DNA of 64,000 nt from positions 96,001 through 160,000 of the forward strand of contig CAVQUB010000001.1 of the NCBI GenBank assembly GCA_963716725.1, read 5' to 3'. Positions 17,212 through 38,439 of this stretch are shown here, one piece after another. This stretch comes from an uncultured delta proteobacterium (lineage in GTDB: Bacteria; Myxococcota_A; Polyangia; Polyangiales; Polyangiaceae). Every line of letters starts with the position of its first letter. Positions within the stretch are counted from its first letter, which is position 1. Below the pieces are notes generated by a model. That model was not told the origin of the DNA, searched no databases, and saw only the letters and a program-made list of their open reading frames with translations. The translations under genes and the position numbers were made by a program.

Positions 17212-17242
17212 GGTTCCGTCGCGGGTCCCGCCGGGGCGGTGG

Positions 17243-20866: not shown

Positions 20867-21171
20867 GCGGCGCGGCACGAAGCCTCGATCTGCTCGAGTG
20901 ACACTGCTTGCATTTTGCGGCGCTCGACGCACGCCTTCACGCATTCGTCGCCGGCGCCCGCCCTCGCAGTCCCTGCCGCCGGGCTCGGGGCTGATGGCGC
21001 GGGGCTCGGGGCCAAGGGCGCCGGGCTCGAGGCCGAAGGCGCCGGGCTTCCCGCGGGATCCTCGCGTGCCGGCTCGCGCGGCACGGGCTCCGCCGACGGC
21101 GCAGGCCCGGTGCTCGTTGTCGAGTTGCAGCCGAGCGCGAGCCAGAGAAATCCGAGAGCGATTGGACGCAC
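20851..21171 (-). CDS. Small Pro-rich lipoprotein
   Basis: VRPIALGFLWLALGC leader; CVKAC...CRAAC tail overlapping the DGC start. Confidence 0.7.
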   Translation of the reverse strand: MRPIALGFLWLALGCNSTTSTGPAPSAEPVPREPAREDPAGSPAPSASSPAPLAPSPAPSAPSPAAGTARAGAGDECVKACVERRKMQAVSLEQIEASCRAACQKN

Positions 21172-21325
21172 CGGATGAAACTGACGCGACCGCAAGCCGG
21201 GCGCAAGCGGGTCCACCCAGCACCGGCGCCATTGTCGGCATCTCAGAGAGCCGTTCAAGTCTTGTTCGGCCTTCATTTCCGGGCGATCACGGCTCGGATG
21301 CGAGTGGTAGCCTGTGGGTGGCAGA

Positions 21326-21769
21326 ATGTGGCCAAGAAGAACGCACCGGTTGCCAACTAGCCTGCTGGCGTTTGCTCTGGTGGCGTGTGGCATCGGCCAG
21401 CCGGTTGGGCCTTGCCCGAACCGCTTGGAGGTTTTTATTTTCGACGGCACGACGGGGCCCGCGGTCGACTTCGACCGCGTCCGGATCTGCTTCGGCGAGC
21501 AGTGCGTCGCCCTCAGCGGTGCGTGCAAGGTGGTCGAGGGCGCGGTCTCGAGGGTGGATTGCGGCGGCGGCACGCTTTGGCTCAACATCCCGGTCGAGGG
21601 GTACTTCGATGTCGTCACGCTCGCTGCGCTCGATGCCGACGGGAAGGTGATCTACACCGCCAAACAGGCTGGGTTCACAAAGACCAGGTCCGGCTGCGCG
21701 TTCACGGAAGCGAGGTTCATTCTCAACTACATCTCCGAAGGGCCGATGGGTGGCACTGGTGGCAGCTAG
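21326..21769 (+). CDS. Putative lipoprotein
   Basis: Lipobox LVAC, globular composition. Confidence 0.6.
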   Translation: MWPRRTHRLPTSLLAFALVACGIGQPVGPCPNRLEVFIFDGTTGPAVDFDRVRICFGEQCVALSGACKVVEGAVSRVDCGGGTLWLNIPVEGYFDVVTLAALDADGKVIYTAKQAGFTKTRSGCAFTEARFILNYISEGPMGGTGGS

Positions 21770-22310
21770 ACACACGCGCCCGCTCGGCGCTGCGGGGCTG
21801 GCCCTCGGGGTGGCGCTTGCAGCATGCTCCGGCGAGACGCAATCGGATCCCGCTTCCCTCCACGAGCTCTGCGCCCGCTTCTGCGCGGACTTCAAGTCGG
21901 GGGGGTGCGCCACGCTTGGAGATATGCACGCGGCAGTCGAGATCGTCGCACAACCCAACTGCGACGCCGATAGCTGCGAGGAGTTCGTCCTCAGCAACCC
22001 GCCCGAGTATCGCTCGCTCTACCTCTGCATTCTCAGCAAGCAGATCGACTGCGGTTTTGGCGAGCTTCCGAGCGTCAAAGGGTGCGACCAGGCCGCCATC
22101 GAGACCGCCGAGGCGATGAGCGAGTGCGAGCGGTTCCCTTCCCTCGCGCAGGGCGCGTGTCCGGACGAGCAGCCGGACCGCTACTACTGTAGCAGCCACT
22201 TCGATCCCGAGCTGGGATACAAGCCGCCGGAGTCGCCCGGCTGCAGCCACCTCGACGGCGGCGAGTACTGCTGCCGGCCCTGGTGGCAGTCGCTCCCTCC
22301 GCCCAAGTGA
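21750..22310 (+). CDS. Cys-rich lipoprotein
   Basis: Lipobox LAAC, many Cys. Confidence 0.7.
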   Translation: MALVAARHTRPLGAAGLALGVALAACSGETQSDPASLHELCARFCADFKSGGCATLGDMHAAVEIVAQPNCDADSCEEFVLSNPPEYRSLYLCILSKQIDCGFGELPSVKGCDQAAIETAEAMSECERFPSLAQGACPDEQPDRYYCSSHFDPELGYKPPESPGCSHLDGGEYCCRPWWQSLPPPK

Positions 22311-22474
22311 CACCCTGGGTCTTGAGCGCGGACGCTGCTGCCAGCCGCTAGGGCGCTCGTTCTTGGCGAGGTCCATCGCAACCTTGCGGAGCAGCGCGAT
22401 GTCTTCTGGCCCGTGCCTCAGCTCCAGCATTCTAGCCGTCCCAGACCCGCAGCGCCCGCCGCGCGCCGTTGAAC

Positions 22475-23518: not shown

Positions 23519-24376
23519 TCAGAAGTGACCCGTGACTCGAAGCTGAGGCATGCCGGCCCGAGCGCCGGACGAGAGCGCGATCGTGCCCGAGTCGTCCTGC
23601 TGCCAGATAACCATGGCTCCACTCAGGGCGACCGCCCCAACGGCCGCAGAGATCCCACCTGCCCACCACAGCGTCCGAATGCCGTCCACGTCGTCCTCAG
23701 AACACGTCGGCTTGCAGGAATCGTCCAGCTCTGCACGCTTGGCGTGTCCGACGACACCGAGCGCGCCGCCGGTGACTAGACCAGCCAATCCCACGGCCCC
23801 CAGGATGTACGCTGCGCTGGGGATCCCAGCATGAGTCTCGGCCTTGGCTGCCGGCGCTCTCACAGGGTGTTCGGCAGGACGTCGTTTGGGCTGACCAAAC
23901 GCCACAGGCAGTTTGTGAGTCGCACGCCCGGGCGCCAGCTGGACAGTGCGGCGCAACGGATCGCTTCCGCTCAGCTCGAAGGTCAACTCATGCTCGCCCG
24001 GATCAAGCTCGATCAAGTCGCCGACATGTGCTGCCAACAGCCGACCTGCTTCAGTGACACGCACCTCCCGAGTGGGTTTGCCCTCGGCATCGAGTGCGGA
24101 GACCCGCAGTCGTGGGATGAGTGCTTCTACCTCCGCCCGCCAGCGATCGCAGTCCTGGACCAGGGCATCTGGACAGCTACTCTGACAGGTGAGGAGCTGA
24201 GCCCGTGCGACCATTAGCTTTCCCGCTGCCCGTTGGCGCTGGGCTTCTTCGTAGGCGCCGGCGCACAGCCCCTTGTCGCTGGCTAGCGCCGGAGAGGCAG
24301 CGAGCCAGAGCGCTCCCATGATCACAATGCTGAGAGCGCTCCGGACGATTCGTGCGCTCGCAGCTGCGGTCACCAT
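23519..24376 (-). CDS. Secreted Cys-helical (TPR-like) + PEGA-like protein
   Basis: Signal peptide, CAGAYEEAQRQRAAGKL..CP..DCDRW, LDPGEHELTF, CKPTC, terminal GHF. Confidence 0.8.
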   Translation of the reverse strand: MVTAAASARIVRSALSIVIMGALWLAASPALASDKGLCAGAYEEAQRQRAAGKLMVARAQLLTCQSSCPDALVQDCDRWRAEVEALIPRLRVSALDAEGKPTREVRVTEAGRLLAAHVGDLIELDPGEHELTFELSGSDPLRRTVQLAPGRATHKLPVAFGQPKRRPAEHPVRAPAAKAETHAGIPSAAYILGAVGLAGLVTGGALGVVGHAKRAELDDSCKPTCSEDDVDGIRTLWWAGGISAAVGAVALSGAMVIWQQDDSGTIALSSGARAGMPQLRVTGHF

Positions 24377-24425
24377 CCTTCAAATCATGCCAGCCCCAGT
24401 GAGCCGCCACAACACTTCGCGTCGG

Positions 24426-24472
24426 TGACAGCTGTCAACCGTGGGGAGACAGCTGTCGCCCCGGGGGTGATA
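24426..24472. promoter_or_regulatory. Two GACAGCTGTC palindromes 21 bp apart; candidate upstream activating sequence
   Basis: tgacagctgtca and agacagctgtcg about 80-125 bp upstream of the predicted sigma54 start. Confidence 0.6.
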
Positions 24473-24523
24473 CGCGCAGGGACGCACGCATTCGTCCGCG
24501 CTGGTCCAACGACGGGTCCGTTG

Positions 24524-24539
24524 AGGCACGAACCTTGCG
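24524..24539 (+). promoter_or_regulatory. sigma54 -24/-12 promoter
   Basis: AGGCACGAACCTTGCG fits GGCAC-N5-TTGC. Confidence 0.75.
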
Positions 24540-24551
24540 AAGGCGAACGGC

Positions 24552-26042
24552 ATGAGAACGACCACACTGCGATGGGGCGCACTCGGCGTGTTGTTGAGCG
24601 CATGCAGCTTGGGGTCCGTTGGCGAAGAGAATCACGCCGGCGCCGCAGACGCTGGAGCGGCGGGGGCAGGTGGGTCGTCAGGCACGGGTGGCAGCGCCAA
24701 CACAGGCGGTGGGGAGACAGGTGGAGCCGCGGGCGCCGGCGGGAGCGCAGGCGCGTCAGGTGGAGCTGCGGGAACCGGCGGGAGCGCAGGCGCGCCAGGT
24801 GGAGCCGCGGGCGCCGGCGGGAGCGCAGGCGCGTCAGGTGGAGCCGCGGGCGCCGGCGGGAGCGCAGGCGCGTCAGGTGGAGCCGCGGGAACCGGCGGAG
24901 ACGCAGGCGTCGTCGTGACGTCGACAATCTCGGCAACGGCAGTGTCGAGCAGTGCCATTCAGGTGACCGTGAAGCTGAACAAGGCCGCACCTTGCTTGGT
25001 GCAATTCCGTCCCCAAGGCACGAGCACTTGGAGCGACAAACTCCCTTCCGAGAACAGCAGCATTCACGGCGTCAACCCGCCGCACGTGCAGACCGTCTCC
25101 GGACTGTCTCCGGGTGCCTGGGAAGTGCGAGCTCTCGATCATTTGGCGGGCAGCTACACGACGAAAACGTTGGTGGTCAACTTGTCCAACGTGGTTGGCG
25201 GGCTCTCCAAGCAGGGCCTTACGTTCACTACCATTCCGAGCGGTGTAGCCTATGGAGCATGGAGCACCCAACGCTGGACCACGATGTTTGGCAACGTTGC
25301 GCCCAACTACGGCGGCGGAATGGGCCAGGTGAAAACGCAGGTGCTGGACGGCACACTCGCCATAATCCATCGCGTCACACCCACCGCACCACCCGGGACG
25401 AGCCCGGCGCTTCCAAAGAACGGCTCGGACCGCGTCGACGGAGCCTGGAACTTGCCCGCGCAGCCACAAAAACGCTTCGCGCTGATGCAATCGGTTCGGC
25501 TACCCAACGACTTTGCTGCGGGTTGGAAAGAGCAATCGGGCAAGCTGGGCTGGGGGCTCGGTGGAGGTTCCGTGCCCTCGGGTGGCAAGCCGCTCAAGGA
25601 TGGCTTCTCGGCGCGGTTGTCTTTTCGGGGCAACAAAGCCCAGCCGGACACGTCGTCCGTCGTGTATCCAATTCTCTATGTCTACTCAGCGGATTGGCCA
25701 GGACAGTACGGTGAGGACGTCCACTTCGTCGACCCGGCGACGACGAAGGACTTCGAGCTGAAGCGCGGAACCTGGGTCGAATTCGCGTGGGAGGTAGTGA
25801 TGAACAGCGCGCCCGGAAAGAGCGACGGTTCGCTGCGCGGCTGGGTCAATGGCGTGCTGATGATCGAGCGGAAGAACAAGCAGTGGTTCTCCCAGTTGGC
25901 TTCTGGTGATGCCGCTCCGCATGTCGACCGCATCATCTTGTCTACCTTTCATGGCGGCGCGACCAGTGACTGGGCGCCGTCACACGCCAACGAGATTGCC
26001 TTCTCCGGCCTGCACTTCGGTGTCCCCAACCCGCCCTGGTGA
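24552..26042 (+). CDS. Gly-linker lipoprotein with PL14-like polysaccharide lyase domain
   Basis: Lipobox LSAC; SGKLGWGLGGG, GFSARLSFR, YVY, MNSAPGKSDG, STFHGG..WAP. Confidence 0.75.
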   Translation: MRTTTLRWGALGVLLSACSLGSVGEENHAGAADAGAAGAGGSSGTGGSANTGGGETGGAAGAGGSAGASGGAAGTGGSAGAPGGAAGAGGSAGASGGAAGAGGSAGASGGAAGTGGDAGVVVTSTISATAVSSSAIQVTVKLNKAAPCLVQFRPQGTSTWSDKLPSENSSIHGVNPPHVQTVSGLSPGAWEVRALDHLAGSYTTKTLVVNLSNVVGGLSKQGLTFTTIPSGVAYGAWSTQRWTTMFGNVAPNYGGGMGQVKTQVLDGTLAIIHRVTPTAPPGTSPALPKNGSDRVDGAWNLPAQPQKRFALMQSVRLPNDFAAGWKEQSGKLGWGLGGGSVPSGGKPLKDGFSARLSFRGNKAQPDTSSVVYPILYVYSADWPGQYGEDVHFVDPATTKDFELKRGTWVEFAWEVVMNSAPGKSDGSLRGWVNGVLMIERKNKQWFSQLASGDAAPHVDRIILSTFHGGATSDWAPSHANEIAFSGLHFGVPNPPW

Positions 26043-26101
26043 AGTGCAAAGCAACGCCCTAGCTCGCTTGCCACAAACAAACGCATACGACTGGAATCCA
26101 G

Positions 26102-27487
26102 ATGAGCCTTCGCATCACCAACTTCGAGACACTCGCGCTGCTTGCGACGCTAACTTGCATGGGCTGCGGCGCGGAATCAGATAGCACAGGAAGCGCTGCG
26201 GGCGGTCAGGGGTCCGGCGCGGGCGCTTCCGGCCAGAGCGGCGACGGTGGTGTTGGTAGCGGCGGCTCTCCCTCTGGTGGAATGGGAGGAAGCGGTGGCG
26301 CCGGTACGGGCGGGGCTGCGACTGGCGGAGCGAGCGGCGGCGGCGGGACACCTGCGCCGCCCCAGGTAAGCAGCGATCTAAAGAGCAAGTATGACTTTGC
26401 ACTGATCTTCGACGCGGACTTCTCGCAAACTGCGACTCTCGGAGCCGGAGCGCTGTGGCGTCGCGAAAACATGTCCGCGAGCCACAACTCCAACCAGCAC
26501 AAACACGCTGACGGCCGCCGGCACGCAGCTTGGTACGACCAGTATCAGGAACAGACCGCGTTCTTCCGGGATGGCTATCTAGTCCAAGCGGGCCACGTCG
26601 CGGACGCGAGCCTGTCAGGATTTCAAAGTCGCGACTCCGGCAACGCCCCGCGAAACCATTCCTATGCTGATCCCGATCCGCGGGACGATGGGAAAGGCAC
26701 GGTCAACTTCGCCGATTTCGAGCTCCACACCTCGTGGTTCGACACCTTTGCGTTGAAGTGGTCCCAGGGAAAGAGCGTGCCTGTTCTACCCACGGACAAG
26801 TTGCTGCCGAAAGAACAGTACACCGGGGCACCGGGCACGACGGACACACCCTCCCCGAACATTACCTTCTTGCCGGGAAGCTACTTTGAAATCGAGGTGA
26901 GCTTCGAAGGCATGAAAGCCTTGTCGCATCGCCACTCGCTTTGGTTGATGCCGGCGACGCCGGAAAACCAAGCCTACGACTCAGATTCGAGCAACGGAGT
27001 GGAGATCGACATTTACGAGCACGAGCTGGTGGAGGACGGTGAGCTTTCTCTATCAGAAAACGAGATGTTGCTCATGAAGTCGATTGGCGGCTCGACCAGC
27101 CCGCCAGTCACCAAGAACGAGCTGAAGGGCGATGGGGCTACGAACATCCGGGTGAAGGGCATCAACTCGGGGTGGCACAAGATCGGCTTGCTGTGGACGA
27201 AGGGTGAAGTGATTTGGCTGGTGGACGGCGAAGAGCTCGTCCGCGATTCCCAGCTGGTGCCACAAGTTCCAATGTATTTGCTGCTCACTCGCGAGGCGAA
27301 TACCGGCGCCGTCGACCCGAGCACTGCGGGCCCCCAAGAGCTCAAATCCATGGGTGCCGCGATCCCGCTCGACCCTGGCTTGTTCGGGCGCAACGTAGCG
27401 ACTCCGGACAACCGAGCACTGGTCAAAGCAGGCAGCGACGAAGTTCGCGTTCGCTACGTCCGAGCCTGGCGTGCCAGCGCCAAGTGA
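26102..27487 (+). CDS. Gly-linker lipoprotein with GH16-like glycoside hydrolase domain
   Basis: Leader ending CMGC; SLWLMP, catalytic EIDIYE, WHKIGLLWT..WLVDG, VRYVRAW. Confidence 0.8.
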   Translation: MSLRITNFETLALLATLTCMGCGAESDSTGSAAGGQGSGAGASGQSGDGGVGSGGSPSGGMGGSGGAGTGGAATGGASGGGGTPAPPQVSSDLKSKYDFALIFDADFSQTATLGAGALWRRENMSASHNSNQHKHADGRRHAAWYDQYQEQTAFFRDGYLVQAGHVADASLSGFQSRDSGNAPRNHSYADPDPRDDGKGTVNFADFELHTSWFDTFALKWSQGKSVPVLPTDKLLPKEQYTGAPGTTDTPSPNITFLPGSYFEIEVSFEGMKALSHRHSLWLMPATPENQAYDSDSSNGVEIDIYEHELVEDGELSLSENEMLLMKSIGGSTSPPVTKNELKGDGATNIRVKGINSGWHKIGLLWTKGEVIWLVDGEELVRDSQLVPQVPMYLLLTREANTGAVDPSTAGPQELKSMGAAIPLDPGLFGRNVATPDNRALVKAGSDEVRVRYVRAWRASAK

Positions 27488-27553
27488 GCTCATCGCCTGA
27501 TCGGGAACCAAATCGGGTCGGTGAATCCGTGGGCATTGCGGTGGTCCCGGCGC

Positions 27554-29176
27554 TCACAAGCATTCGCGTTTGACCTGTCGGAATCCACCTTTGTCCTCGA
27601 TCCACGGGGGATCACAGTTAGCGGTCTTGGGTCGCCCGGGCCGTTTCGGCGTGGGCGCGAGTCGCGGCTTTGAGCTTGGCGCGGCGGAGGCGGAAGACGC
27701 CGCGCTGTCGGGCGGTGGCGCCGCGCTATTCGGGGCCGTTGGCGATGCGGCGACGGCTTCGGCCGGTGTGGCGACGGTTGCGGCCGCCGTCGACTTCGCG
27801 CCCGGCTGCGGCTCGGCTTCCGTCGAAGGGGTCTCAGGTGCGTCGCGCACGAACTGCATCGCAAGCGCGAGCACCAGGAGTGCCAGCGCAGCCAGGCCGC
27901 CCGCCAACACCCGGCGGCTTCGAGCACGTGTTGGCGCGGGAGCTCCCAGAGCCACCCCATTCGGCGCCGCCGGTCTGACCACGCCGACTTCGAGGGTGGC
28001 GGTGCCAGCTCCCGCCGGTCGGCCCCGGGGCGACGGCGGAGGTCGGGGTGGTGGCGCGTCGGCGGTTGCGTGAACGGACAAGGTCGGTACGTGTCGAGCG
28101 GCAAGCGGAGCGTTCGGGGCGACCCGCGGCGAAGCTCCACTCGGCGGCGGCGTGGCGCCTGGCGCGCCGGGGGCAACGCCACCTCGGACGTAGCGTGCGC
28201 TGCTGCGCTCAATCGCGCGCACTTTCTCAGCGCGTCGGTCCAGTTCATCGCCCACGAGCGCCCGCATCCAGTCCGCGACTTCCCGCGCGGAAGCGGGTGT
28301 CACGGCGCACTCCAGCGCAATGGCCATGTCGCGCGCTGAAGCAAAGCGGTTGGTCGGGTCTTTGGCGAGGCCCTGAAGCACCACGGCATCGAGTTGGGCA
28401 GGAATACTCGACACCAGCTGACTCGGCGCCGGTACCGCTTCATGCAGGATCTTGGAAACAATGCCCGCTTCACTCTTTGCTGCGTGCAAACGCCGAGCGG
28501 TCAGGGTCTCCCACAGCACGACGGACGCCGAGTAGATGTCGGCTTGAGCCGTGACTTCGCGATCCTGCAACTGCTCAGGCGGCATGTAGCGGAGCTTGCC
28601 CTTCAGTTGACCGTCCCGGGTGCTCTGCAAACGCACGGTGGCTTTTGCGATGCCAAAGTCGACCACGCGGGCCACCCCGTCTGCGCCCACCAGGATGTTG
28701 TCGGGAGAAACGTCGCGGTGAATGATGTGCAGCGCCGCGCCGTTTTCATCGGTGGCCTCGTGAGCCGCATGCAAACCGAATAGCGTGTCCGTCGCGGCGC
28801 GTACGGCAATCGTCTTCGGTACGCGAGTTCCCGCGGCCTTCGCCGCCTTGAGCAGTTCCGCTAGTGTTGCCCCCAATACGTACTCCATCACCAAGAACAA
28901 CTCGTCGTCGGAAGCAACCACATCTTCCGGAGCGACGACGTTCGGGTGACGGATTCTCGACGCCAGCCTAGCCTCGTCCACCAACATCGCGACGAACTCA
29001 GGATCCCGGGCGAAGTGAGGGTGCAGGCGCTTGATGGCGACTGCACGTGCAAACCCGGCGGCGCCGGACAGCACGCCCAGATGGATGACTGACATGCCTC
29101 CCGACGCCAACTCGTCAAAGAGGAGGTAGCGACCCAACTCGGTGCCGACGACCTCGGGCGTACTCACAAGACCCAT
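27554..29176 (-). CDS. Membrane Hanks-type Ser/Thr protein kinase
   Basis: GGMS, VAIKRL, HRDVSPDN, DFGIAK, YMPPEQ; TM; C-terminal CDPPWIEDKGGFRQVKRECL. Confidence 0.95.
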   Translation of the reverse strand: MGLVSTPEVVGTELGRYLLFDELASGGMSVIHLGVLSGAAGFARAVAIKRLHPHFARDPEFVAMLVDEARLASRIRHPNVVAPEDVVASDDELFLVMEYVLGATLAELLKAAKAAGTRVPKTIAVRAATDTLFGLHAAHEATDENGAALHIIHRDVSPDNILVGADGVARVVDFGIAKATVRLQSTRDGQLKGKLRYMPPEQLQDREVTAQADIYSASVVLWETLTARRLHAAKSEAGIVSKILHEAVPAPSQLVSSIPAQLDAVVLQGLAKDPTNRFASARDMAIALECAVTPASAREVADWMRALVGDELDRRAEKVRAIERSSARYVRGGVAPGAPGATPPPSGASPRVAPNAPLAARHVPTLSVHATADAPPPRPPPSPRGRPAGAGTATLEVGVVRPAAPNGVALGAPAPTRARSRRVLAGGLAALALLVLALAMQFVRDAPETPSTEAEPQPGAKSTAAATVATPAEAVAASPTAPNSAAPPPDSAASSASAAPSSKPRLAPTPKRPGRPKTANCDPPWIEDKGGFRQVKRECL

Positions 29177-29300
29177 GAAGCTTCTTGACGGTGAGCATGC
29201 CCGGTAGCGGACGCGTCGGCCAGGGGTGCCAGACTAGCCCACGCGATTGCCGCCCGGGTTGACAGCGCCCTGCGCGTAGCGAAGAAGGAGCAGACTCAGA

Positions 29301-30623
29301 ATGAGCAACAGTGCAAACGCTGCCACGCAAACGACCATCTACCGGGACCGCGTGGAGATGCCGGAACTCGAGCTCGAGGTCACGCAGCCGGATGGTGTGT
29401 CCCAGGGGCATCGCCTGGGATTGGAGGCCCTTGTGATCGGGTCTGGGTCCGACGCAGACGTCGTACTGGTGGACGATTCCGTGTCGCGCAAACACTGCGA
29501 ACTGAGGATGAGCTCCCGGGGGGTCGAGGTGTCGGATCTCGACAGCAAGAACGGCACCTTCGTCAATGCAGTGCGCGTGGGGCGCGCTCTGCTCGAACCC
29601 GGCCAGATTTTGCAGGTCGGGAGAAGTCGGCTCACTCTGACTGCGCGTGCGGGCCGGGTCAGCATGCCCCTGACCATGGACTCGCAGTTCGGAGAAGCGT
29701 CCGGCGTGTCGGTTGTCATGCGGGCAATGTTCGCGCGCTTGGTGCGAGCGGCAGCCAGCGAGGAAACCGTGCTCTTGCTCGGGGAGTCGGGTACTGGCAA
29801 GGAACTGCTCGCGCGTGCCATCCACGAACGCAGCAAGCGCAGTGCCGGTCCTTTTGTCGTGCTCGACTGTAGTGCACTCGCGCCGACTTTGGTTGAAACG
29901 GAGCTTTTTGGACACGCGCGCGGCGCATTCACCGGAGCACTTCAAGTTCGCGAAGGCGTATTCGAGCAGGCCGGTGGTGGCACGGTGTTCATCGACGAGA
30001 TCGGTGAACTGCCCATGGACTTGCAGCCCAAAATGCTTCGGGCGCTGGAGTCCCGAGAGATACGACGCTTGGGGGAAAACGCGGTGCGCCCCATCGATGT
30101 TCGCGTTATCGCTGCAACACACCGGGATATCCGCGGGCGCGCCGTCAGCGGAGAGTTCCGGCAGGACCTGTACTATCGGCTCGCGGTGGTCGAGGCTGCG
30201 GTGCCTCCCCTGCGCGAGCGCAAAGACGACATTCCCATGCTCGTCGAGCGGTTCCTAGGCGAGCGCAAGCCACCGATGACGCTGCGCGATCTTCCACCAA
30301 ACACCCTGGCGCTGCTGTCGGCCCATGACTGGCCCGGGAATGTTCGCGAATTGCGTAACACGATCGCGCGGCTCGTCCTGTTTCCGGAAGCACCCGAAGC
30401 CGCCATTGCTTCGCTTCCACGGCAAGGTGATGCGACGGCTGCGCTCTTTTCACTGACCCTGGGCGATGCGCGGAGCGAAGTCGTCGCGCAGTTCGAGCAG
30501 AGCTATTTGGAGCGCAAGCTAGCCGAGCACGCCGGCAACGTGACCCACGCTGCCGAGTCCGCGGGTGTCTCGCGGCAGTTCTTTCATCGGCTGATTTCGC
30601 GGCACGGCATCGACCGCGAGTGA
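29301..30623 (+). CDS. FHA-domain sigma54 enhancer-binding protein
   Basis: [44 protein letters not shown]. Confidence 0.95.
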
Positions 30624-30701
30624 GCAGCACCGCGACCCACAAGTCCGAACCAACACGTTGCGCAGATGGCGCTGTGCAATCCCGCGGCCGCAGGCGCAGG
30701 C

Positions 30702-31532
30702 TTACAGGTTGAAGTTGTCCACTACGGAGCTACCCGACACAGCTAGCGAGGAGTAGGCGTACACTTTCACTCGCGCGTAGTTGAACTTCGCGGGCGTGGC
30801 TTCGCTGCGGATGGTTTTCCATGTGAGCCCGTCGCTCGATCCGAGGATGGTGGTGATCCCTGCGTGACTCGAGATCCGCCACCAGCGAAACTTGCTCTCA
30901 TCGAGTCCTGACGCGACCGTCTTGCCGCCTACATTCGTCTGCAAGTTGTCTTTGATTAGGTTGATCTCGACGCTGTCACTTCCAGTGGAATCTTGCGGGA
31001 TGACCACTAGATTCGTCGATACCGACGCGTTCGAGACGGGAGAAACGACCTGAAGTGAGACATAGCAGTCGGTTAGGTCCTTCAGTTTGGTTTGAAACCC
31101 CGACTCCCCAGCGGTGGCTGGCAACTGCATCGAGAGCACGCCGTTCTTCTCGATCAGCGCCCCGGTGCCGACCTTCGTCAACGCAGGGTCGAGGACTCCG
31201 TTTTCGAAGTCGTCCGAACCCACGTTGCAGGGAGAAATCGATACACCCGCGTCACCGTCGGAGTCCGCTTCGACGTCAACGTCCCCAGCATCGCTCGCGT
31301 CCAATCCGCCCGTGCCTCCGCCATCTACGCCCCCAATGCCGCCGGACGCGCCCACGCCGCCGGACGCGCCCACGCCGCCGGACGCGCTCACGCCGCCGGA
31401 CGCGCCGACTCCGCTGGCCCCGCCAGAGACAGCGCCGCCGAGCGACGGTCCCGCGTCAAGTTCGGGTTTACCCTCGCTCAGGTAGGAGAGGTTGCAACCA
31501 ACCAGGATGAGGCAGCCCACGACGCTTCGCAC
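30702..31532 (-). CDS. Gly-linker lipoprotein with beta-sandwich-like domain (start uncertain)
   Basis: Lipobox LVGC, Gly linker, SDDFENG..., SSDGLTW, VDNFNL end. Confidence 0.7.
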   Translation of the reverse strand: MRSVVGCLILVGCNLSYLSEGKPELDAGPSLGGAVSGGASGVGASGGVSASGGVGASGGVGASGGIGGVDGGGTGGLDASDAGDVDVEADSDGDAGVSISPCNVGSDDFENGVLDPALTKVGTGALIEKNGVLSMQLPATAGESGFQTKLKDLTDCYVSLQVVSPVSNASVSTNLVVIPQDSTGSDSVEINLIKDNLQTNVGGKTVASGLDESKFRWWRISSHAGITTILGSSDGLTWKTIRSEATPAKFNYARVKVYAYSSLAVSGSSVVDNFNL

Positions 31533-31866
31533 TGTTGGCGCAAGGTTAGCACAATCGCCGCCATGGCTTCGCCGCACCGAAGGCAACAGGAAGCACCCCA
31601 ACTCGTTCGCGCCGCCCGCCGTCCCGGTGCCGTGACGTACGCGGGTGGACAGGTGATATCGTAGCGAACAGGGTTTGCCGCAGTGCCTTCGACGCGGCTG
31701 CAAGAGATCCTCCTGCGTTGTCTATGGAGCGCAGCATGATGTTGTTCGGTTCCCGGCGGGGTCGCAGCTGTCGACTGACGTTGACGGCGTGAACCAGGGG
31801 ACGACACTGCGTCAACTCCCGGGTGTCACCCGGGGGGGACAGTCCCTTGCCCGCGGCGATCCGTCC

Positions 31867-31882
31867 TGGCATGCCTCATGCA
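31867..31882 (+). promoter_or_regulatory. Probable sigma54 -24/-12 promoter
   Basis: TGGCATGCCTCATGCA (GG-N10-GC) upstream of the PL1-like gene; TGTC-N10-GACA at 31824-31841. Confidence 0.55.
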
Positions 31883-33293
31883 CATCCGGCCCGCTGTCCA
31901 ATGATGACTAGGGAGCGAGCATCCGGGATGGCACGACACGGCCGACAGGTTTCCGGTGGTTTGCTGGCAGTGGCTTTGTTTTCGGAAAAGCGCGTCGCCA
32001 AGAGCCACATCCGTCGTGTTTCGCTGTTCCTGCTGCTCTTCACCGCGTGTTCCTCAGATCCGGATCCAACCAATGCCGGGCGTGCGGACGGTGGTTTGAG
32101 CCCTGATGCCGCGACGGACTCGCCCGAGTTGGACGGGGCTGGCGATCCAGATGGACCGGACGCGGCTACCTGTGTGGATCGCGTCAGCTCCCTCTTCGCG
32201 GAGCGCTTTGGCTACGGCGCTCAGACAACCGGCGGTGAGGGTGGGATCTTCACCAAGATCACTAGCTTGACTGGCGATTCGCTGCTCACGGCACTGACGG
32301 ATGACAAGGCACGCTGGATCTACTTTGACCCGGCGCTTGATGGTCAAACGTGGTCCGTCCCGGAATCGGTGGCGCTCGGCCCCAACAAGACGATCGACGG
32401 ACGGGGCGTAAAGATCACTTGGCAGTACGGTTATCCGAACAACAACCTGAGCATCAACTCTCCGCCGGTCACTGCACCCGCGAAGAACGGGCAACTCAAC
32501 GCGCAGCGCGGCAACTTGATCATGACCGGCATCCGCCACGTGGGCGACCTGGGTTGGCCCTACACCTACGAGAGTCCGTACTTTTCGAATGGTGCGACGG
32601 ATGGTCTCGAGATTTGGTCGGGGAAGAAATACTGGATCCACAAGAACACTTGGTCCCGCATGTCGGATGAGAGCCTTGGCATCTATCACCTCAACGACGC
32701 CGACCCGGACAACATCACCTTCAGCCACAACTTGTTTATCGAAACGAAGACGGCTTCCCTCATCGGCGCGAATGGGATTCAACCGAACAAGGGTCGCGTA
32801 ACGCTCGCATTCAACGACTTCCGAGAAATGGTGAACGGACGCGCGCCCGGTGAGTTTCGCAACATGTTCGCTCACGTGTTCAACAATGTAGTGAACTACG
32901 TGAACGATGAAGGGGTCCGTGTCGCGGAGGGAGCCACCGTCTACTCCCAGTTCAACTATCTGAACCTGGGCTGCAATCCAGGCGTCTCAGGTCCCCGCTT
33001 TGCATTGGGCGTTCTCGACCCCAATCCTGCCCTCGGCGAAACCGGCGTTCTCTTTTCCGATGGCGACATCGTGCCGAAGGAAGTCGCGAACTGCATGTTC
33101 ACCACCAACTCCGGCTACAGCTCACCACCCGCGGCGCCTCCTGTAGGCCGTCACCCTCCGTCGTGATCCCCCGCGGTCGTGGTGTCGGTCTGGGCGCTCG
33201 TTGTTTCGGGTGAGCCGGGTTCGGACTCCGGAGAGCTTCGCCGTTCTTTTTTCCTGAGAGGCTGATCCGCGGAAAGCTGATCGCCGGAGAAGG

Positions 33294-33971
33294 TTGGTCC
33301 GTCGCGGTAGCACCCGCACGGACCCGGCCAGCGAAGGATTGGTTGTCCGTTACGAGACGACCCTCACCAGCGAGCGGTACGTTACCGAGCAGGCGTGGCG
33401 GGCCGCAAGTTTGGAGCGGTGCCCGCTGCACCCGGAGGGCGGCTGCGGTCTCGCGGGGCACGGGAGCTACGGTCGGGTCCGCCCCGTCGGCGTCCGCGTC
33501 GCCCGGTTCTGGTGCCCGCGGGCTCGGGTGACTATCAGCCTTTTGCCTGATTTTCTGGCTTCCCGACTGTCGGGCACGCTCGAGGAGGTCGAGCGGGCCG
33601 TCGAGGTGGCCGAGGGCGCCAAGAGTCTGGAGGCGGTCGCCGAGAAGGTGCGCCCCGCGATCGCAGCGGACGCGGTGACGCTTCCAAGCGCGCTGCGGTG
33701 GCTCCGGCGGCGGCGTGTTGCTGTCCACGCGGCGCTCGTGGCGGCAGTGACGCTGGTGCCGGCGCTCACGGGCTGCCCGGCGACGCTTGGCGCGGTGCGG
33801 CAACGACTCGGGGTGTCGGATGCGCTCGTGGCGCTGCGGTCGGCCGCGGCCATTCACCTGGCCGCCATGCCAGCGCCGGTCGGACTGCGGGCGCGAGGGC
33901 GAGCGCGGCAAGCATCGCGAGAGCCGACCCCACACGAAACGGGGCCGGACCCTCCTCGGCGGGACCGATAG
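33294..33971 (+). CDS. Transposon orf1, Cys/His (Zn-binding-like) protein
   Basis: CPLHPEGGC..HGSYGR, RFWCP..TISLLPDFLA; start uncertain. Confidence 0.75.
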   Translation: MVRRGSTRTDPASEGLVVRYETTLTSERYVTEQAWRAASLERCPLHPEGGCGLAGHGSYGRVRPVGVRVARFWCPRARVTISLLPDFLASRLSGTLEEVERAVEVAEGAKSLEAVAEKVRPAIAADAVTLPSALRWLRRRRVAVHAALVAAVTLVPALTGCPATLGAVRQRLGVSDALVALRSAAAIHLAAMPAPVGLRARGRARQASREPTPHETGPDPPRRDR

Positions 33972-34022
33972 CGGGTTGGTGTGCCCGGGACGGACCCGGG
34001 CCGACACCGAAAGAGAACTCCG

Positions 34023-35426
34023 ATGAGGACACCGACCCCCGAAAACGAACGCACGCTCGCTGACGCCGAGCGCAGAAAGCAGATCGCGCTGTTCCGTTAT
34101 GGCGTGATCGCAGATCTGCTCCACCTCGAGCGCGGTGCGCGCGGCATGTACGCGAAGCTGCGCGAGAAGGCGGAGAAGGACTGGGAGATCCCCGGAACGC
34201 TCCGGCGGAAGGTCCAGGCCGAAACGATCCGCGGATGGCTTGCGGACTACCGACGCGGCGGCTTCGACGCCCTTGTCCCGAAGATCCGACGGGACGAGGG
34301 CTCGGCTCGCGCCATTCCCCGGGAGATCGCGGATCTGCTCTGCGAGACGAAAGAGCAGCACGCGGACTTCAGCGTCGGACTCGTCATCGCGCACGTGACG
34401 CGCTTCGCGAAGATCCCGGAGGGGGTCACGCTTGCGCCATCGACGGTGCACCGGATCTTGTCTCGGGCCGGACTCATGCAGAAGAAGCAGGGCGAGCCGA
34501 CGGCGAAGGACCGCCGACGCTTCGCCTTCGAGAAGGCGGGCGAACTGTGGATGAGCGACGTGATGCACGGCCCCGCCGTCGCCGTGTCCGGGCGGCAGCG
34601 GAAGACGTACCTGCTCGCCGTCATCGACGACGCGACACGGATGGTGCCGTATGCGGCCTTCGCGCTCAGCGAGAACGCCGCGACCCTTCTCAGCGTGCTC
34701 GAGCAAGGGATCTGCCGCCGCGGGATCCCCAAGCGGCTTTACGTCGACAACGGTGCCGCCTTCAAAGCACAGCACCTGGCGCTCGTGTGCGCGAAGCTCG
34801 GCATCACCTTGATCCACGCGCGTCCCTACACGCCCCAGGGAAAAGGAAAGATGGAGCGGTGGTTTCGGACCGTGCGTCTTCAGCTCCTGCCGACGCTCCA
34901 GCCCGAGGACAGGCGGAGTCTCGAAGCACTCAACCGCCGTCTCTGGGCGTGGGTCGAGGGTGAGTATCATCGGAGTCCCCACCGCGGACTCGACGGTGAG
35001 ACGCCCGCGGATCGCTGGGCGATGCGCTCAGACGAGGTGCGCCAGTCGTCGAGCGACCTCGCCGATCTGTTTCTCTTCGAGCAGAAGCGCCGTGTGCAGG
35101 CCGACCGCACCGTGTCGCTCGACAGCGTGGCCTACGAAGTGGACGCGATGCTCGTCGGCGAGACCGTCGTCCTTCGCTTCGATCCGGCGCGTCCGCGAGA
35201 GACACGTGCCGTCCAGGTCTGGCATCGCGGAAAGCAGATCCAGATCGCTCGCCGTGTCGACGTCTACGCCAACTGTTTCGTCCGACGCGATCACACGACG
35301 AAGGCCCTGCATCCATCTCAGCCCGTGGACGAGCCGCCCCCCGGCATGCGCTTGAGCGACTTCGACTTCGATGTCGGGGACAACCAGCAGGGCGGCGCTG
35401 GCGACGACGAGGGGGACCTCCTCTGA
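34023..35426 (+). CDS. DDE integrase-fold transposase with Mu-like C-terminal domain
   Basis: ALFRYGVI, WMSDVMHG, IDDATR, LYVDNG, GKGKMERWFRT, YHRSPH, RRVQADRTVSL. Confidence 0.92.
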   Translation: MRTPTPENERTLADAERRKQIALFRYGVIADLLHLERGARGMYAKLREKAEKDWEIPGTLRRKVQAETIRGWLADYRRGGFDALVPKIRRDEGSARAIPREIADLLCETKEQHADFSVGLVIAHVTRFAKIPEGVTLAPSTVHRILSRAGLMQKKQGEPTAKDRRRFAFEKAGELWMSDVMHGPAVAVSGRQRKTYLLAVIDDATRMVPYAAFALSENAATLLSVLEQGICRRGIPKRLYVDNGAAFKAQHLALVCAKLGITLIHARPYTPQGKGKMERWFRTVRLQLLPTLQPEDRRSLEALNRRLWAWVEGEYHRSPHRGLDGETPADRWAMRSDEVRQSSSDLADLFLFEQKRRVQADRTVSLDSVAYEVDAMLVGETVVLRFDPARPRETRAVQVWHRGKQIQIARRVDVYANCFVRRDHTTKALHPSQPVDEPPPGMRLSDFDFDVGDNQQGGAGDDEGDLL

Positions 35427-36223
35427 TGTACCGCAAGCACTTCGGCCTCACCCGCCACCCCTTCGCCAAAAACATCGAGCCCGACGAGCTCTTCGCCTCC
35501 GGTGCGCTCCGAGAACTCGACGCCCGGCTCGCCCATCTCCTCGACTTGCGCGGCATCGGTGTGGTCACCGGTGAGAGCGGCAGCGGCAAGACCACCGCGT
35601 GTCGGAAGATCGTCGCCGGTCTCCACACGGGTCTGCACCGCGTCCTCTACGTGTCGCTCACCACCGGCAACGTGATGGATCTCTACAAGACCATCGCCTG
35701 GGAGATCGGCCTACCCACCGAGCGCAACCGCGCCGCACTGTTCCGGCAGATCCGGACCGAGGTGACGCGGCTCTGCAGCGAGGCCCGGCAGAAACCGATC
35801 CTGATCGTGGACGAAGCTCATCACCTCAGGAGCGACGTGCTCGAGGACCTGCGCCTGCTCACCAACTACGCGATGGACTCCGACAACCGCCTCTGCCTGG
35901 TCCTCGTCGGACACCCGGAACTGCGCCGCCGCCTCGGCATGGCGGTGCACGAGGCGCTCTCGCAGCGCGTCGTCGTGCGCGCTCACGTCCCGGGTCTTGC
36001 CCGTGACGAGCTCGGCCCGTACCTCACGCACCTGCTCCGACTCGCCGGAACCGAGCTCGAACTCTTCGAGCCCGCAACCCAGGAGGCGATCTTCCAGGCG
36101 TCGAACGGCCTGCCCCGGAAGGTGAACCTGCTCGCTCACCACGCGCTCATGGCCGCCGCGCTCACCAAGAGCAGGACCGTCACGACCGAGCACATCCAGT
36201 CCGCCATGGCCGAAGTCACCTGA
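35426..36223 (+). CDS. ExeA-like AAA+ ATPase (transposition helper)
   Basis: MYRKHFGL..PF, GESGSGKT, LIVDEAH, GLPRKVN; TGATG coupling to the transposase. Confidence 0.92.
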   Translation: MYRKHFGLTRHPFAKNIEPDELFASGALRELDARLAHLLDLRGIGVVTGESGSGKTTACRKIVAGLHTGLHRVLYVSLTTGNVMDLYKTIAWEIGLPTERNRAALFRQIRTEVTRLCSEARQKPILIVDEAHHLRSDVLEDLRLLTNYAMDSDNRLCLVLVGHPELRRRLGMAVHEALSQRVVVRAHVPGLARDELGPYLTHLLRLAGTELELFEPATQEAIFQASNGLPRKVNLLAHHALMAAALTKSRTVTTEHIQSAMAEVT

Positions 36224-36617
36224 GCCCAGCGCCCGGCGACGGTCCACAAGGCCCGGCGGAGATCCACGTCTCCGTCGGGCCGCTCCCTTTCTGCCACCAC
36301 CTCGCCACGCCCACTCGACCACCGCACTCCGGGAAACCACCCCGAGGGCATCACGAAAATGCCCGGGATTCGGGCGGGGGAAGAGCGTGGGAAACTACAC
36401 CTCCCTTCGCGATCCCCACGGACGCGGCGTACCAAAACTACACACTGCTGACGGGAACCGGTCCTGAGATCGACGCTTTTGTCACGGCGAACTCGGGGGC
36501 AGGCTCCGCAACCAGCCACGCATTCTGCGACCCGCCGTAGGCACGTCGACTCGCTGCCTGCGATCCACGTTCGCGGGCGTGCCCGTCCATCTCGCAGAAC
36601 CGCTTTCCGTGCCTTCG

Positions 36618-37919
36618 CTACGGCCCATGAGACAACACGAAATCCCTATACTTCGTGGTCTGATTCCAAGTCGACGTATAGACAACCTGAGTCCCGCTTG
36701 GCGACGCCGAGAGCTTAGGTTGTGCGTCGTAGTCATAGTTGTTGTAGTCGGCCACGTATTCACGGACAAATCCCCAGTCCTCATACGTCGTCGTCGATTC
36801 GTAATCCAAGCGTATCGAGATGGCTTTCTGGCCTCCACGGGCTGTGGATAGATAGGCCCACCCAGGACGCTTGTAGTTCGTACAACTGACGTGACCGTTT
36901 CCCGTCTTGAAGGTCTGTTTCGTGTGGTGAAGCCCGTCCTTCAATCGAACAAATGTCACGGTATTGCCTGTGTCGAAAAGGACGGCCACCTGGTCGCCGT
37001 TCACGTCCACACACAGGTCCGTATGCCCGGACATTTTGGTGTGTACAACGTTGTCAAAATTCCGATCCGAATAGCGAGTGACGCCTCCCGACAGCCAAAC
37101 CAAGAATTGGCCGTCCTGTGATATGTCGGCCCCGTTGAGCCCCCCGGTCACGGTGTATGGCCCCGAAATGACTTTCTTGTTTTGTATGTCGAGCACGCGA
37201 AGCCGCTGCCCGGAGTCCACAAGAGCGAATCGGTCGTCCGTACTGATGCCACCTTCCCATTGCCCTAGCAGTATGGGTTCGCCCACGTCCACGATCAGCT
37301 CGGTAGCGCCTGTGCTGATCCTCCCCCTCAAGAACTGAGATCCAGAGGTGCCATAAATCAGGTCGGGATCAGAGTGAGAGGGAACCCACTCGGATGACAT
37401 CATTGTCTTGATATCTCGTACGATTGACAGATCGGAAACTCTGAGTGCTTTCTCGCCGATGTATAGAATCGTTTCATCCGAGTTCCAGGCTTGGCGCCGA
37501 GAATACTGGTGACGTTGGCCAGGCGCACTTACGCCGCGAATGCACGTTCCTGGAAGATCACCTTGAATGGTTTGACCCACACCAGGAACTGTTAACGCCT
37601 TTTCCGTGAGCAGAGGAGACTGCGTCACGGGTGGGTATGGCGCCCCTACTCCGTCCGGCCAGCCGCAGGGCGACTGCCAAACCGCACCAGCGGAACCAGC
37701 GTAGCCACCGCCGACGCCGGCACCACCACCGCCGACGCCGGCACCACCACCACCGACGCCGGCACCACCCACGTGGCTTCCGCCCGCGTCGCAGCTGGAA
37801 CAGCCCCCCGAGCCGCCGCTGGGGGAAACATCACTTCCCGCGCTGTCGCCGCAAGCTGCGACGCTGACAGCGGACAAGACGAAGCTCGTGACGTAGCCAA
37901 GCGTCTTGCGGTTGTTCAT
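36618..37919 (-). CDS. Gly-linker lipoprotein, beta-propeller
   Basis: Lipobox VAAC; YSRRQAWNSDET, DISQDG, GHVSC, SASPSGTQVVYTSTW. Confidence 0.8.
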   Translation of the reverse strand: MNNRKTLGYVTSFVLSAVSVAACGDSAGSDVSPSGGSGGCSSCDAGGSHVGGAGVGGGGAGVGGGGAGVGGGYAGSAGAVWQSPCGWPDGVGAPYPPVTQSPLLTEKALTVPGVGQTIQGDLPGTCIRGVSAPGQRHQYSRRQAWNSDETILYIGEKALRVSDLSIVRDIKTMMSSEWVPSHSDPDLIYGTSGSQFLRGRISTGATELIVDVGEPILLGQWEGGISTDDRFALVDSGQRLRVLDIQNKKVISGPYTVTGGLNGADISQDGQFLVWLSGGVTRYSDRNFDNVVHTKMSGHTDLCVDVNGDQVAVLFDTGNTVTFVRLKDGLHHTKQTFKTGNGHVSCTNYKRPGWAYLSTARGGQKAISIRLDYESTTTYEDWGFVREYVADYNNYDYDAQPKLSASPSGTQVVYTSTWNQTTKYRDFVLSHGP

Positions 37920-37933
37920 GGTCCGATGGATTG

Positions 37934-37949
37934 AGCAAACACCGTGCCA
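37934..37949 (-). promoter_or_regulatory. sigma54 -24/-12 promoter
   Basis: Minus strand TGGCACGGTGTTTGCT, full consensus. Confidence 0.85.
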
Positions 37950-37973
37950 GACGCTCGACACTCGGGCGCATAG

Positions 37974-38420
37974 TCGTCAGGGACGACCGCGAGCGAGAAG
38001 TGCCCCATGAACCCTTGGCCTGCCATGCCCACCCTGCCGAGCCCCTGGCGCTTATCGCCCAAGAACCGAAACTCCGTCGTGTCGTGGATCACGATCACCT
38101 CGTCGTGCTCCGCAACCCGACGCACTGTGGCGCTGACGTGCGGCCGGAGCACCTCGTCGAAGCTCACCTTCTCGTTCCGAACGAAGCGGGAGAAGCCTTC
38201 GAGTTCTGCCTCAGAGCCCATCATGTCGGGAAAGGCATCGCGCGGATTCGCGTCCGCTGCTCGCGCGATCCGCTCCAGTCGGGCGTTCAGCCGCCGATCC
38301 CCAAGCTCAGCCCCTTCGAACTCCGTCGCCACAGACACTCGCACCTTCGCCTTCGCTCTTGCCATGCTCTCCGGACGCACCGGAGGACGAAACTGATCAA
38401 AAGATGTGACTGGTCGTGAG
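37974..38420 (-). mobile_element. IS4-family (IS50/Tn5-like) remnant: probable left end and transposase N-terminus (ATG 38365)
   Basis: EFEGAELGDRRLNARL, RFVRNEKVS, IHDTTEF. Confidence 0.85.
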
Positions 38421-38439
38421 CCGACGGGGGATGACGGGG

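Follow-up and report, generated by a model that had tools for sequence, protein, structure and literature searches.

A lipoprotein carbohydrate-active enzyme cluster around a Ser/Thr kinase and an FHA-type sigma54 activator in an uncultured member of the Polyangiaceae

In the Sus-like polysaccharide utilization loci (PULs) of the Bacteroidota, genes for lipoprotein lyases and hydrolases are co-localised with an adjacent, dedicated sensor or regulator, together with SusC and SusD, and control is by hybrid two-component systems or extracytoplasmic function (ECF) sigma factors. A second system of interest is that of the sigma54 regulons of Myxococcus xanthus, reportedly described by Jelsbak et al. 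in 2005, where enhancer-binding proteins (EBPs) of FHA–AAA+–HTH architecture occur as many paralogues and palindromic upstream activating sequences (UASs) lie in short intergenic regions. One further paper describes PexR with three UASs, and a leaderless transcript of the sigmaA type (PMC12754779). Here we describe a locus that resembles both systems in part. It lies at 23.5–38.0 kb of a 64,000-nucleotide stretch of DNA (the window; positions 96001–160000 of contig C1) from an uncultured Polyangiaceae bacterium (genome G000; assembly of 7.89 Mb in 35 contigs, 84% complete), and it consists of genes for lipoprotein carbohydrate-active enzymes (CAZymes) that surround the genes for a Ser/Thr kinase and for an activator of sigma54 with an FHA domain. 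Like the PULs, it places lipoprotein lyases and hydrolases next to a dedicated sensor and regulator; unlike them, both the window and the related locus of a second genome are without SusC/SusD or a transporter, and the predicted control is by a Ser/Thr kinase and an FHA-EBP via sigma54. With the M. xanthus regulons it shares the domain architecture of the EBP, the abundance of EBP paralogues and the palindromes in short intergenic regions.

Open reading frames (ORFs) were called with guidance from GC3, the GC content at third codon positions, and gene families were assigned by a Pfam scan. The gene order is membrane protein, PL14-type lyase, GH16-like hydrolase, kinase, FHA-EBP, small lipoprotein, PL1 lyase, insertion sequence (IS), PL1 tail, propeller protein and a fragment of an IS4/Tn5-family element (Table 1). 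An earlier note on this DNA, made from the letters alone, had described enzymes flanking the second signalling module of the window in the absence of SusC/D or transporters, and both statements hold. The kinase and the EBP sit between the enzyme genes, and the Pfam scan of the 57 window ORFs gave no TonB-receptor, SusD or transporter family, nor was there a match to SusC/SusD families among the nine ORFs scanned in the second locus. Four of the five proteins match CAZyme folds or families (PL14/36, GH16, PL1 and a PL22-like propeller), and each of the five is single-copy in the genome, save for one weak PL14-like match. On balance, and with moderate confidence, we read the cluster as a portable accessory regulon whose enzymes degrade two kinds of polymer outside the cell, an acidic (uronic-acid) glycan and a beta-glycan.

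The first point in favour of this reading is that the gene set recurs. On L022, a contig of the metagenome-assembled genome (MAG) G061 from a second uncultured member of the Polyangiaceae, the genes for the GH16-like hydrolase, small protein, membrane protein, kinase, EBP, PL1 lyase and PL14 lyase lie within 9 kb. Order and orientation are not those of the window, which means that the genes have stayed linked through rearrangement. The 21 C-terminal residues of the kinases are 81% identical, and the recognition-helix stretch of the EBPs, VSRQFFHRL, is the same in both. L022 also encodes, at 3212–4693(−), a right-handed beta-helix protein (Beta_helix, with a weak GH28 match). This protein contains a collagen-like linker, and ∼43 nt upstream of its gene lies a motif resembling a sigma54 promoter.

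The second point is a palindrome common to the two loci. Relative to the predicted start, the two copies of GACAGCTGTC upstream of the PL14 gene are centred near −118 and −97, and across the loci the palindromes lie about 78–118 bp upstream of predicted starts. The sequence is rare, with eight exact copies in the 7.89-Mb genome, and the other six have no sigma54-like motif at a distance of 260 bp or less. In L022, an exact copy precedes the GH16 promoter, in the intergenic region from which the beta-helix and GH16 genes diverge, and a second copy, with one mismatch, precedes the PL1 promoter. That the enzymes are co-regulated by the adjacent EBP, as the earlier note held, is thus favoured by the shuffled second locus, the shared rare palindrome and the identical recognition helix, all of which are comparative in nature.

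The third point is the position of the promoter motifs. In the window, the PL14, PL1 and propeller genes have GG-N10-GC motifs 12–19 nt ahead of their start codons, as does, in a weak form that is not conserved in L022, the small-protein gene; so do the PL1 and PL14 genes of L022 and the propeller homologue of G061. If the C of the GC element is taken as −12, the short gaps place the start codon at +3 to +9, and with promoters so close to the start codons the mRNAs would be expected to be leaderless or nearly so. The same geometry is seen genome-wide. Among 101 exact GGCAC-N5-TTGC sites in the genome, an ATG follows 13 nt later in 13 cases and 14 nt later in eight (21/101), compared with zero to five at other offsets of 5–44 nt and five to six at offsets of 1–2 nt, and controls with an N4 or N6 spacer were flat. 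When motifs with up to one mismatch were considered, with duplicate contexts removed, 64 of 506 lay 11–16 nt before a long ORF of high GC3, against 26/505, 11/330, 19/497, 28/651 and 54/879 (3.3–6.1%) for five control motifs. Over 41 genomes of the family, the 13–14 nt pattern gave 424 matches in 39 genomes, a spacing of 23–24 nt gave 60 and the reversed pattern 20, an enrichment of the near-leaderless geometry of ∼7-fold. Several of the G000 genes that show the 13–14 nt pattern also encode lipoproteins with Gly-rich linkers. Terminator-like sites in the window were at chance level (13 versus 10.5), and no sigma70-like promoters were seen in it. Two more sigma54-like motifs, at 10754–10769(−) and 10990–11005(+), lie near unannotated ORFs beyond the first signalling module.

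That first module (4945–8567) is made up, like the second, of three genes, for a kinase (4945–6300), a homologue of the membrane protein (6370–7206) and an FHA-EBP (7131–8567). The 285-aa membrane protein of the cluster has no Pfam match. In L022 its homologue is encoded immediately after the kinase, and in the first module the ORF that separates kinase and EBP gives a product 34% identical to it (E 1e-38). Of the 13 paralogues in the genome, at least three map no farther than about 2 kb from a kinase paralogue. The occurrence of paralogues beside kinase/EBP pairs makes kinase, partner and FHA-EBP a recurrent three-gene unit, and the 285-aa protein is likely to be the third member of the signalling cassette. 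HRD and DFG motifs can be read in the translation of the kinase. The EBP has its best match within the genus at only 48–49% identity, and there are 34–58 paralogues per genome.

We now turn to the enzymes. The earlier assignment of the first as a PL14-like lyase is supported by the match to PF21294. Its layout is a lipobox, a Gly/Ala linker of ∼100 aa, an Ig/Fn3-like region (by eye) and a beta-jelly-roll lyase domain. As a single sequence the protein gave no match in the PDB at E≤1. A profile built from it and nine relatives (10 sequences) matched chains of the PL36 enzyme Aly36B (6kcw, 6kzk and 6kcv, 5e-29 to 7e-26, with 6kcw at 5e-29) and, more weakly, the PL14 structures of the mollusc enzyme AkAly30 (5gmt, 1.5e-19) and the Chlorella-virus enzyme vAL-1 (3a0n, 2e-10). 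By this measure the ‘PL14’ protein is nearer to bacterial PL36 Aly36B than to the PL14 structures. Four residues of the domain, K131, R155, Y176 and Y178, do not vary among the 10 sequences and align with the K, R and Y-x-Y of Aly36B; the Lys opposite K131 is replaced by Ala in the 6kzk chain. Aly36B (6KCV) is described as a PL36 mannuronate lyase in which Lys replaces the usual catalytic Tyr (PMC8618178). The protein shares the profile matches and the Lys/Arg/Tyr-x-Tyr set with Aly36B (6KCV/6KCW), AkAly30 (5GMT) and vAL-1 (3A0N), and differs from all three by the N-terminal lipobox, the 100-aa linker and the extra domain. The family is rare, with eight relatives in a word-based search of 5.8 billion clusters. 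The statement that characterised PL14 enzymes come only from Chlorella virus and molluscs is out of date, since a metagenome survey reports PL14/PL36 homologues from 10 bacterial classes, the two families being hard to separate (PMC11890756).

The second enzyme had been taken for a GH16-like hydrolase from its EIDIYE motif, and both fold and motif were confirmed, the one by the predicted structure and the other by an alignment of 22 homologues in which E211, D213 and E216 (ExDxxE) are invariant. The AlphaFold model has a pLDDT of 92.7. All the matches listed by Foldseek are GH16 enzymes (E about 1e-10), as are 50/50 entries listed in the VIA alignment (Z 20.4–22.7, rmsd 2.4–3.4); among these listed neighbours laminarinases rank first, with agarases and porphyranases within ∼2 Z. 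At the sequence level the relationship is remote. The protein gave no match to any Pfam family, PF00722 included, at E≤0.01, its L022 orthologue scored 16.3 bits against a cut-off of 22, and a search of the PDB with the single sequence gave nothing useful. Some homologues carry the names ‘GH16 domain-containing’ or ‘lichenase’. Thus the protein has the beta-jelly-roll fold and the invariant ExDxxE of GH16 laminarinases, agarases and porphyranases, but is only 10–19% identical to known GH16 enzymes, carries about 130 extra residues, falls below the PF00722 threshold and belongs to a separate clade that it shares with Pirellulales and Verrucomicrobiales. The closest relatives (55–64% identity) are in Rhodopirellula, Rubripirellula and Adhaeretor (Pirellulales) and in Verrucomicrobiales, with others at ∼30% in Granulosicoccaceae. 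The gene follows that for PL14 after a gap of 60 bp in which no promoter motif was seen, and it is probably co-transcribed with PL14 and dependent on the PL14 promoter.

The PL1-like lyase is supported by PF00544 and by matches to PDB sequences that include solved pectate lyases (7xks 2.5e-7, Jun a 1 6.8e-7, VexL 3.7e-6). Motifs resembling WIDH and RxPxxR can be seen by eye and may correspond to the Ca-binding Asp residues and the catalytic Arg. The ORF as called spans 31823–33166(+), and its start codon is ambiguous (ATG 31901, ATG 31928 or a later TTG). The gene is, however, split by an IS, which, like the IS4/Tn5 fragment, was absent from the earlier account of the interval. The element has ends TGTAG...CTACA, is flanked by a 5-bp target duplication (CCTCC at 33137–41 and 36400–04) and encodes an rve transposase (IS481-like, Mu-transpos_C; 33981–35426) and an AAA_22 ATPase (35426–36223). 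It interrupts PL1 at codon 414 (numbering from ATG 31901), 44 codons before the end of the gene, and positions 36406–36537 beyond it align with residues 386–428 of the intact L022 protein (67% identity, E 3e-19); the two PL1 proteins are 81% identical over 381 aa. The element is present at 100% identity in eight further places in the genome (at least nine copies in total), one of them at a contig end. As the copies are identical, the element is active and its insertion into PL1 recent. The insertion is real, and it removes the native C-terminus of PL1.

For the beta-propeller protein, the model (pLDDT 92.3) is an all-beta propeller, as had been proposed. The best fold matches are the PL22 oligogalacturonate lyases 3pe7 (YeOGL, Z 26.6) and 3c5m (VPA0088, Z 26.2) over 303–305 residues, with TM scores of 0.65 and 0.63. 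Other propellers reach Z≤21.9, so that PL22 stands about 5 Z above generic WD40 propellers. In sequence searches, the query had no Pfam family, PF14583 was not among the nine families matched by 59 members of its family, the family profile reached 3pe7 only at E 1.2, and the single sequence gave nothing useful against the PDB. The family is large and unnamed (673 representatives at E≤0.001), with PD40 repeats in 4/59 and type IX secretion system (T9SS) tails in 2/59 of the members scanned, and H59, H221, D223, H265, R269 and R273 are near-invariant. The protein is therefore like PL22 Ogl in its predicted seven-bladed fold, PL22 being the best structural match, and differs in being predicted as an exported lipoprotein and in having no sequence-level relation. 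Ogl itself is presumably cytoplasmic.

The small lipoprotein, the beta-sandwich protein of the earlier note, is alignable over its full length with its L022 homologue. It has no Pfam match even at E≤10 and no PDB sequence match at E≤1. A language-model lead (Atlas) points to ConA-like clusters of GH43_C2/DUF1349 (0.94–0.96), and its domain is possibly a ConA-like sandwich.

All five proteins have a predicted signal peptide followed by Cys, in keeping with the earlier description of lipoproteins with flexible linkers. The lipoboxes, read from the translations by pattern and without a predictor, are canonical in four (LSAC in PL14, LVGC in the small protein, FTAC in PL1, VAAC in the propeller) and relaxed in the GH16-like protein (LTCMGC, with LTCVGC in its orthologue). 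By the same pattern, the lipobox Cys is kept in the orthologues. A linker of 45–100 aa rich in G, A, S and D follows each lipobox.

Table 1. Features of the cluster, of the related locus L022 and of other copies or homologues. Gap, count of nt that separate the −12 GC from the start codon; identities of L022 proteins are to the window proteins.
Feature	Position	Strand	Basis or remarks
285-aa membrane protein; signal peptide, Cys-rich periplasmic part, two C-terminal transmembrane (TM) helices	23519–24376	−	L022 and first-module homologues
Two exact palindromes GACAGCTGTC, 21 bp apart	24427–24457		Candidate EBP sites (UAS)
PL14 sigma54 motif AGGCAC-N5-TTGCG	24524–24539	+	2 mismatches; gap 13 to ATG 24552
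PL14/PL36-type lipoprotein lyase	24552–26042	+	PF21294 Polysacc_lyase_14, E 7e-14, 52.5 bits vs cut-off 27
Divergent GH16-fold hydrolase with linker	26102–27487	+	AlphaFold model, Foldseek, VIA; EIDIYE
Ser/Thr kinase; one TM helix, short periplasmic tail ending in conserved Cys motif	27554–29176	−	Pkinase, E 3e-32
FHA + Sigma54_activat (AAA+) + HTH_8 EBP	29301–30623	+	Pfam; GAFTGA and Walker motifs (translation)
Small lipoprotein, family unassigned; linker + ∼170-aa domain	30702–31532 (ORF 30702–31703), GTG start 31532	−	L022 homologue
Small-protein weak sigma54-like motif TGGCGG-N5-GTGCT	31548–31563	−	3 mismatches; gap 16 to GTG 31532; candidate
Palindrome-like CGCAGCTGTC (8 of 10)	31763–31772		Between divergent small-protein and PL1 genes
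PL1 sigma54 motif TGGCAT-N5-ATGCA	31867–31882	+	2 mismatches; gap 19 to ATG 31901
PL1 pectate-lyase-like lipoprotein, 5′ part	31901–33141	+	PF00544, E 1.9e-7, 31.3 bits vs cut-off 24
3258-bp IS; rve transposase + AAA_22 ATPase	33142–36399	+	Pfam, repeat comparison
Displaced 3′ end of PL1 (44 codons + stop)	36405–36540	+	Aligns with L022 PL1
Lipoprotein, Gly-rich linker + 7-bladed propeller	36618–37919 (ORF 36618–37961)	−	Predicted structure, fold search
Propeller sigma54 motif TGGCAC-N5-TTGCT	37934–37949	−	Perfect consensus; gap 15 to ATG 37919
IS4/Tn5-family transposase N-terminal fragment (repeat)	37974–38434	−	Pfam, repeats
Other IS copies in G000	C5:137384, C13:139468, C9:361819, C12:37235, C10:53607, C13:59001, C11:1, C1:163746		100% identity
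L022 beta-helix protein	3212–4693	−
L022 GH16	5010–6377	+	81% identity
L022 small protein	6542–7369	+	About 37–38% identity
L022 membrane protein	7376–8221	−	56% identity
L022 kinase	8252–9844	−	70% identity
L022 EBP	10082–11413	+	70% identity
L022 PL1	11511–12797	+	About 78–81% identity
L022 PL14	12919–14106	+	53% identity
L022 second possible GH16-like gene	14445–16232	−	595 aa, sub-threshold GH16 match
L022 PL1 motif TGGCCT-N5-TTGCA			Gap 14 to ATG
L022 PL14 motif GGCAC-N5-GTGCA			Gap 13 to ATG
L022 GH16 motif TGGCCC-N5-TTGCT			Gap 62 to ATG
G061 propeller-homologue motif GGGCAC-N5-TTGCG			Gap 13 to ATG
G061 propeller neighbours (L050 = G061:C84)	6605–8608, 9008–10150	−	Cytochrome cd1-like protein, NHL/SGL propeller

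Taken together, these features would fit the following course of events. A signal in the envelope would activate the membrane kinase, and the FHA domain of the EBP would read the resulting phospho-threonine. The EBP would bind palindromes of the GACAGCTGTC type 78–118 bp upstream and, with ATP, open the sigma54 promoters, whose closeness to the start codons would yield leaderless or nearly leaderless mRNAs. The products, predicted to be lipid-anchored through long linkers, would be the PL14/36 lyase, the GH16-fold hydrolase, the PL1 lyase, the small protein and perhaps the propeller. They would act outside the cytoplasm, with no importer encoded nearby. Candidate substrates are alginate or glucuronan together with a beta-glucan or galactan, of algal or bacterial origin. 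As PL1 is split by the IS, the enzyme set is partly damaged in this genome.

The cluster is strain-specific, being absent from six genomes of the same genus and lying in an IS-rich mosaic region. A PL14 domain is found in 0/6 same-genus genomes, 1/36 genomes of the family and 1/24 from other families of the order. DNA comparison with the same-genus genomes found nothing of 23.5–33.1 kb beyond generic kinase and AAA+ similarity. Homologues of the GH16-like protein occur at 25 other genome loci, among them loci of Pirellulales, Verrucomicrobiales and Granulosicoccaceae, and these are without other cluster genes, the sole extra match being a generic kinase of 28% identity in locus L024. The neighbours of the homologues in Adhaeretor, Rhodopirellula, two Verrucomicrobiales and Granulosicoccus likewise show no shared cluster; they include DUF1559, LacI, GH29 and GH5 as well as unrelated genes. 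When metagenomes were scanned, PL1 yielded no relative, and the GH16 alignment yielded six loci, none with other cluster genes apart from generic kinase/GGDEF matches.

It had been noted by eye that the catalytic domains are less GC-rich than the regulators. With 58–62% GC against 67.8% for the genome, the catalytic genes do fall in the lowest 0.3–0.8 percentile when compared with 4046 long ORFs. In GC3 they are nevertheless unremarkable (27th–40th percentile; propeller, 4th), so the low GC is mostly a matter of amino-acid composition, and low GC as a mark of foreign origin was ruled out. Since codon usage gives no signal, the evidence for transfer is the phyletic distribution.

The surroundings are a mosaic of gene and IS fragments, namely the N-terminal half of a monomeric isocitrate dehydrogenase (IDH; 386–1807), the C-termini of urocanase (17239–17583) and gyrB (45387–45812), and an IS66 transposase fragment (51909–52535), in addition to the IS4 fragment. 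A search for island borders found no tRNA in the window. Only a displaced GAF-GGDEF gene (19724–21241) is syntenic with a same-genus genome; it is the sole part of 12–52 kb shared with same-genus genomes (73–78% nt identity). Its flanks in the same-genus genome G002 correspond to 256–302 kb of contig C15 of G000, so the gene, or a copy of it, has moved. Two small Cys-rich lipoprotein genes (21312–22317) are duplicated at G000:C5:716878–717883 with 96% identity. Repeats of 60–200 bp at ∼41.7–42.0 and 43.6–43.8 kb, which occur in dozens of copies (80–97% identity) in G000 and same-genus genomes, may be miniature mobile elements.

Several observations weigh against the reading as a regulon. Of the three promoters, two carry two mismatches, and the fourth, weak one has three. 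Sigma54 motifs with up to two mismatches number 23 in the window against 26.2±4.7 in shuffles, which is the level of chance. The three motifs that the earlier note placed before the enzymes are present, and at a shared geometry, but the count for the window is not above chance, and their significance lies in their position. In the window, the GH16-like gene has no promoter of its own, and the PL1 gene is truncated. The conserved association is supported by two loci, to which the metagenome scans added none. Finally, the propeller lacks a palindrome and is flanked by IS DNA, the IS4 fragment ending 25 bp from its promoter and replacing its earlier upstream region, and a 40%-identical homologue in G061 adjoins genes for a cytochrome cd1-like protein and an NHL protein, not CAZymes. 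These neighbours hint at another functional context for the propeller family. For these reasons the link of the propeller to the cluster is weaker; it may belong to the regulon, having the same promoter type, but this is doubtful.

The alternative that survives best concerns the substrate. The targets might be bacterial exopolymers (prey capsule, biofilm, bacterial alginate, Vi-like polyuronates or the organism's own matrix), and the role predation or remodelling, not nutrition. Myxobacteria are predators, no importer is encoded nearby, and the PL1 sequence matches VexL, a Vi-antigen lyase; that KduI (PF04962) had no match in the 84%-complete assembly is a weak point on the same side, and is not taken as absence. 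On the other hand, the closest homologues of the GH16-like protein belong to Pirellulales and Verrucomicrobiales and more distant ones to Granulosicoccaceae, groups linked with marine algae, and the listed entries nearest to it in structure are laminarinases, agarases and porphyranases. The substrate of Aly36B is alginate, and these points do not distinguish alginate of algal origin from that of bacteria. We regard bacterial targets as possible but the less probable case.

It could also be that the enzymes are real but have gathered in an IS-rich dumping ground, with the adjacent kinase and EBP not in control and the promoters answering to other EBPs. The mosaic surroundings and the relocated GGDEF gene would suit this, sigma54 promoters with an ATG at 13 or 14 nt are common genome-wide, and any of the 34 EBP paralogues in this genome (E≤1e-60) could drive the promoters of the cluster, which also tells against the regulon. 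It is hard to reconcile, however, with the linkage of the same enzymes to the trio of kinase, EBP and membrane protein in a second genome of shuffled order, or with a rare palindrome common to both loci and an identical recognition helix, and we consider it improbable.

That the cluster is a decaying remnant, no longer a working unit in this strain and perhaps not expressed at all, is suggested by the broken PL1 gene, the IS4 fragment beside the propeller promoter, the many gene fragments around and the failure to find rpoN (PF04552, PF04963) in the 84%-complete assembly, a further point against the regulon, but is unlikely given that, PL1 aside, the enzyme ORFs (four in all) as well as those of the kinase and the EBP are intact and keep their conserved catalytic motifs, that identical IS copies mark a recent insertion, and that one copy of rpoN in each of 6/6 same-genus genomes makes the missing ∼16% of the genome the simplest account of the gap.

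The reading of the cluster as an accessory regulon for glycan breakdown would provide a concrete pairing of one orphan myxobacterial kinase/FHA-EBP module with a candidate binding site and target genes. It also draws attention to three enzyme clades without a characterised member, namely the rare Aly36B-like lyase, the GH16-fold clade and the exported PL22-like propellers. In the full-text literature searched we found no CAZyme regulon under a kinase/FHA-EBP pair, and no leaderless sigma54 transcripts in myxobacteria. A broader view, which we put forward only tentatively, is that sigma54 promoters of the Polyangiaceae are routinely positioned for transcription to begin at the start codon or a few bases from it, giving leaderless transcripts, and that portable cassettes of kinase, partner and FHA-EBP switch on lipid-tethered extracellular enzymes in this way. 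No earlier cassette of this kind would then have been linked to polysaccharide lyases and hydrolases, and the present cluster would be a myxobacterial counterpart of the PUL that lacks a transporter. If the observed geometry reflects real start sites, sigma54-dependent leaderless mRNAs would be common in the whole family, which would bear on the translation of leaderless mRNAs and on the annotation of gene starts in the Polyangiaceae.

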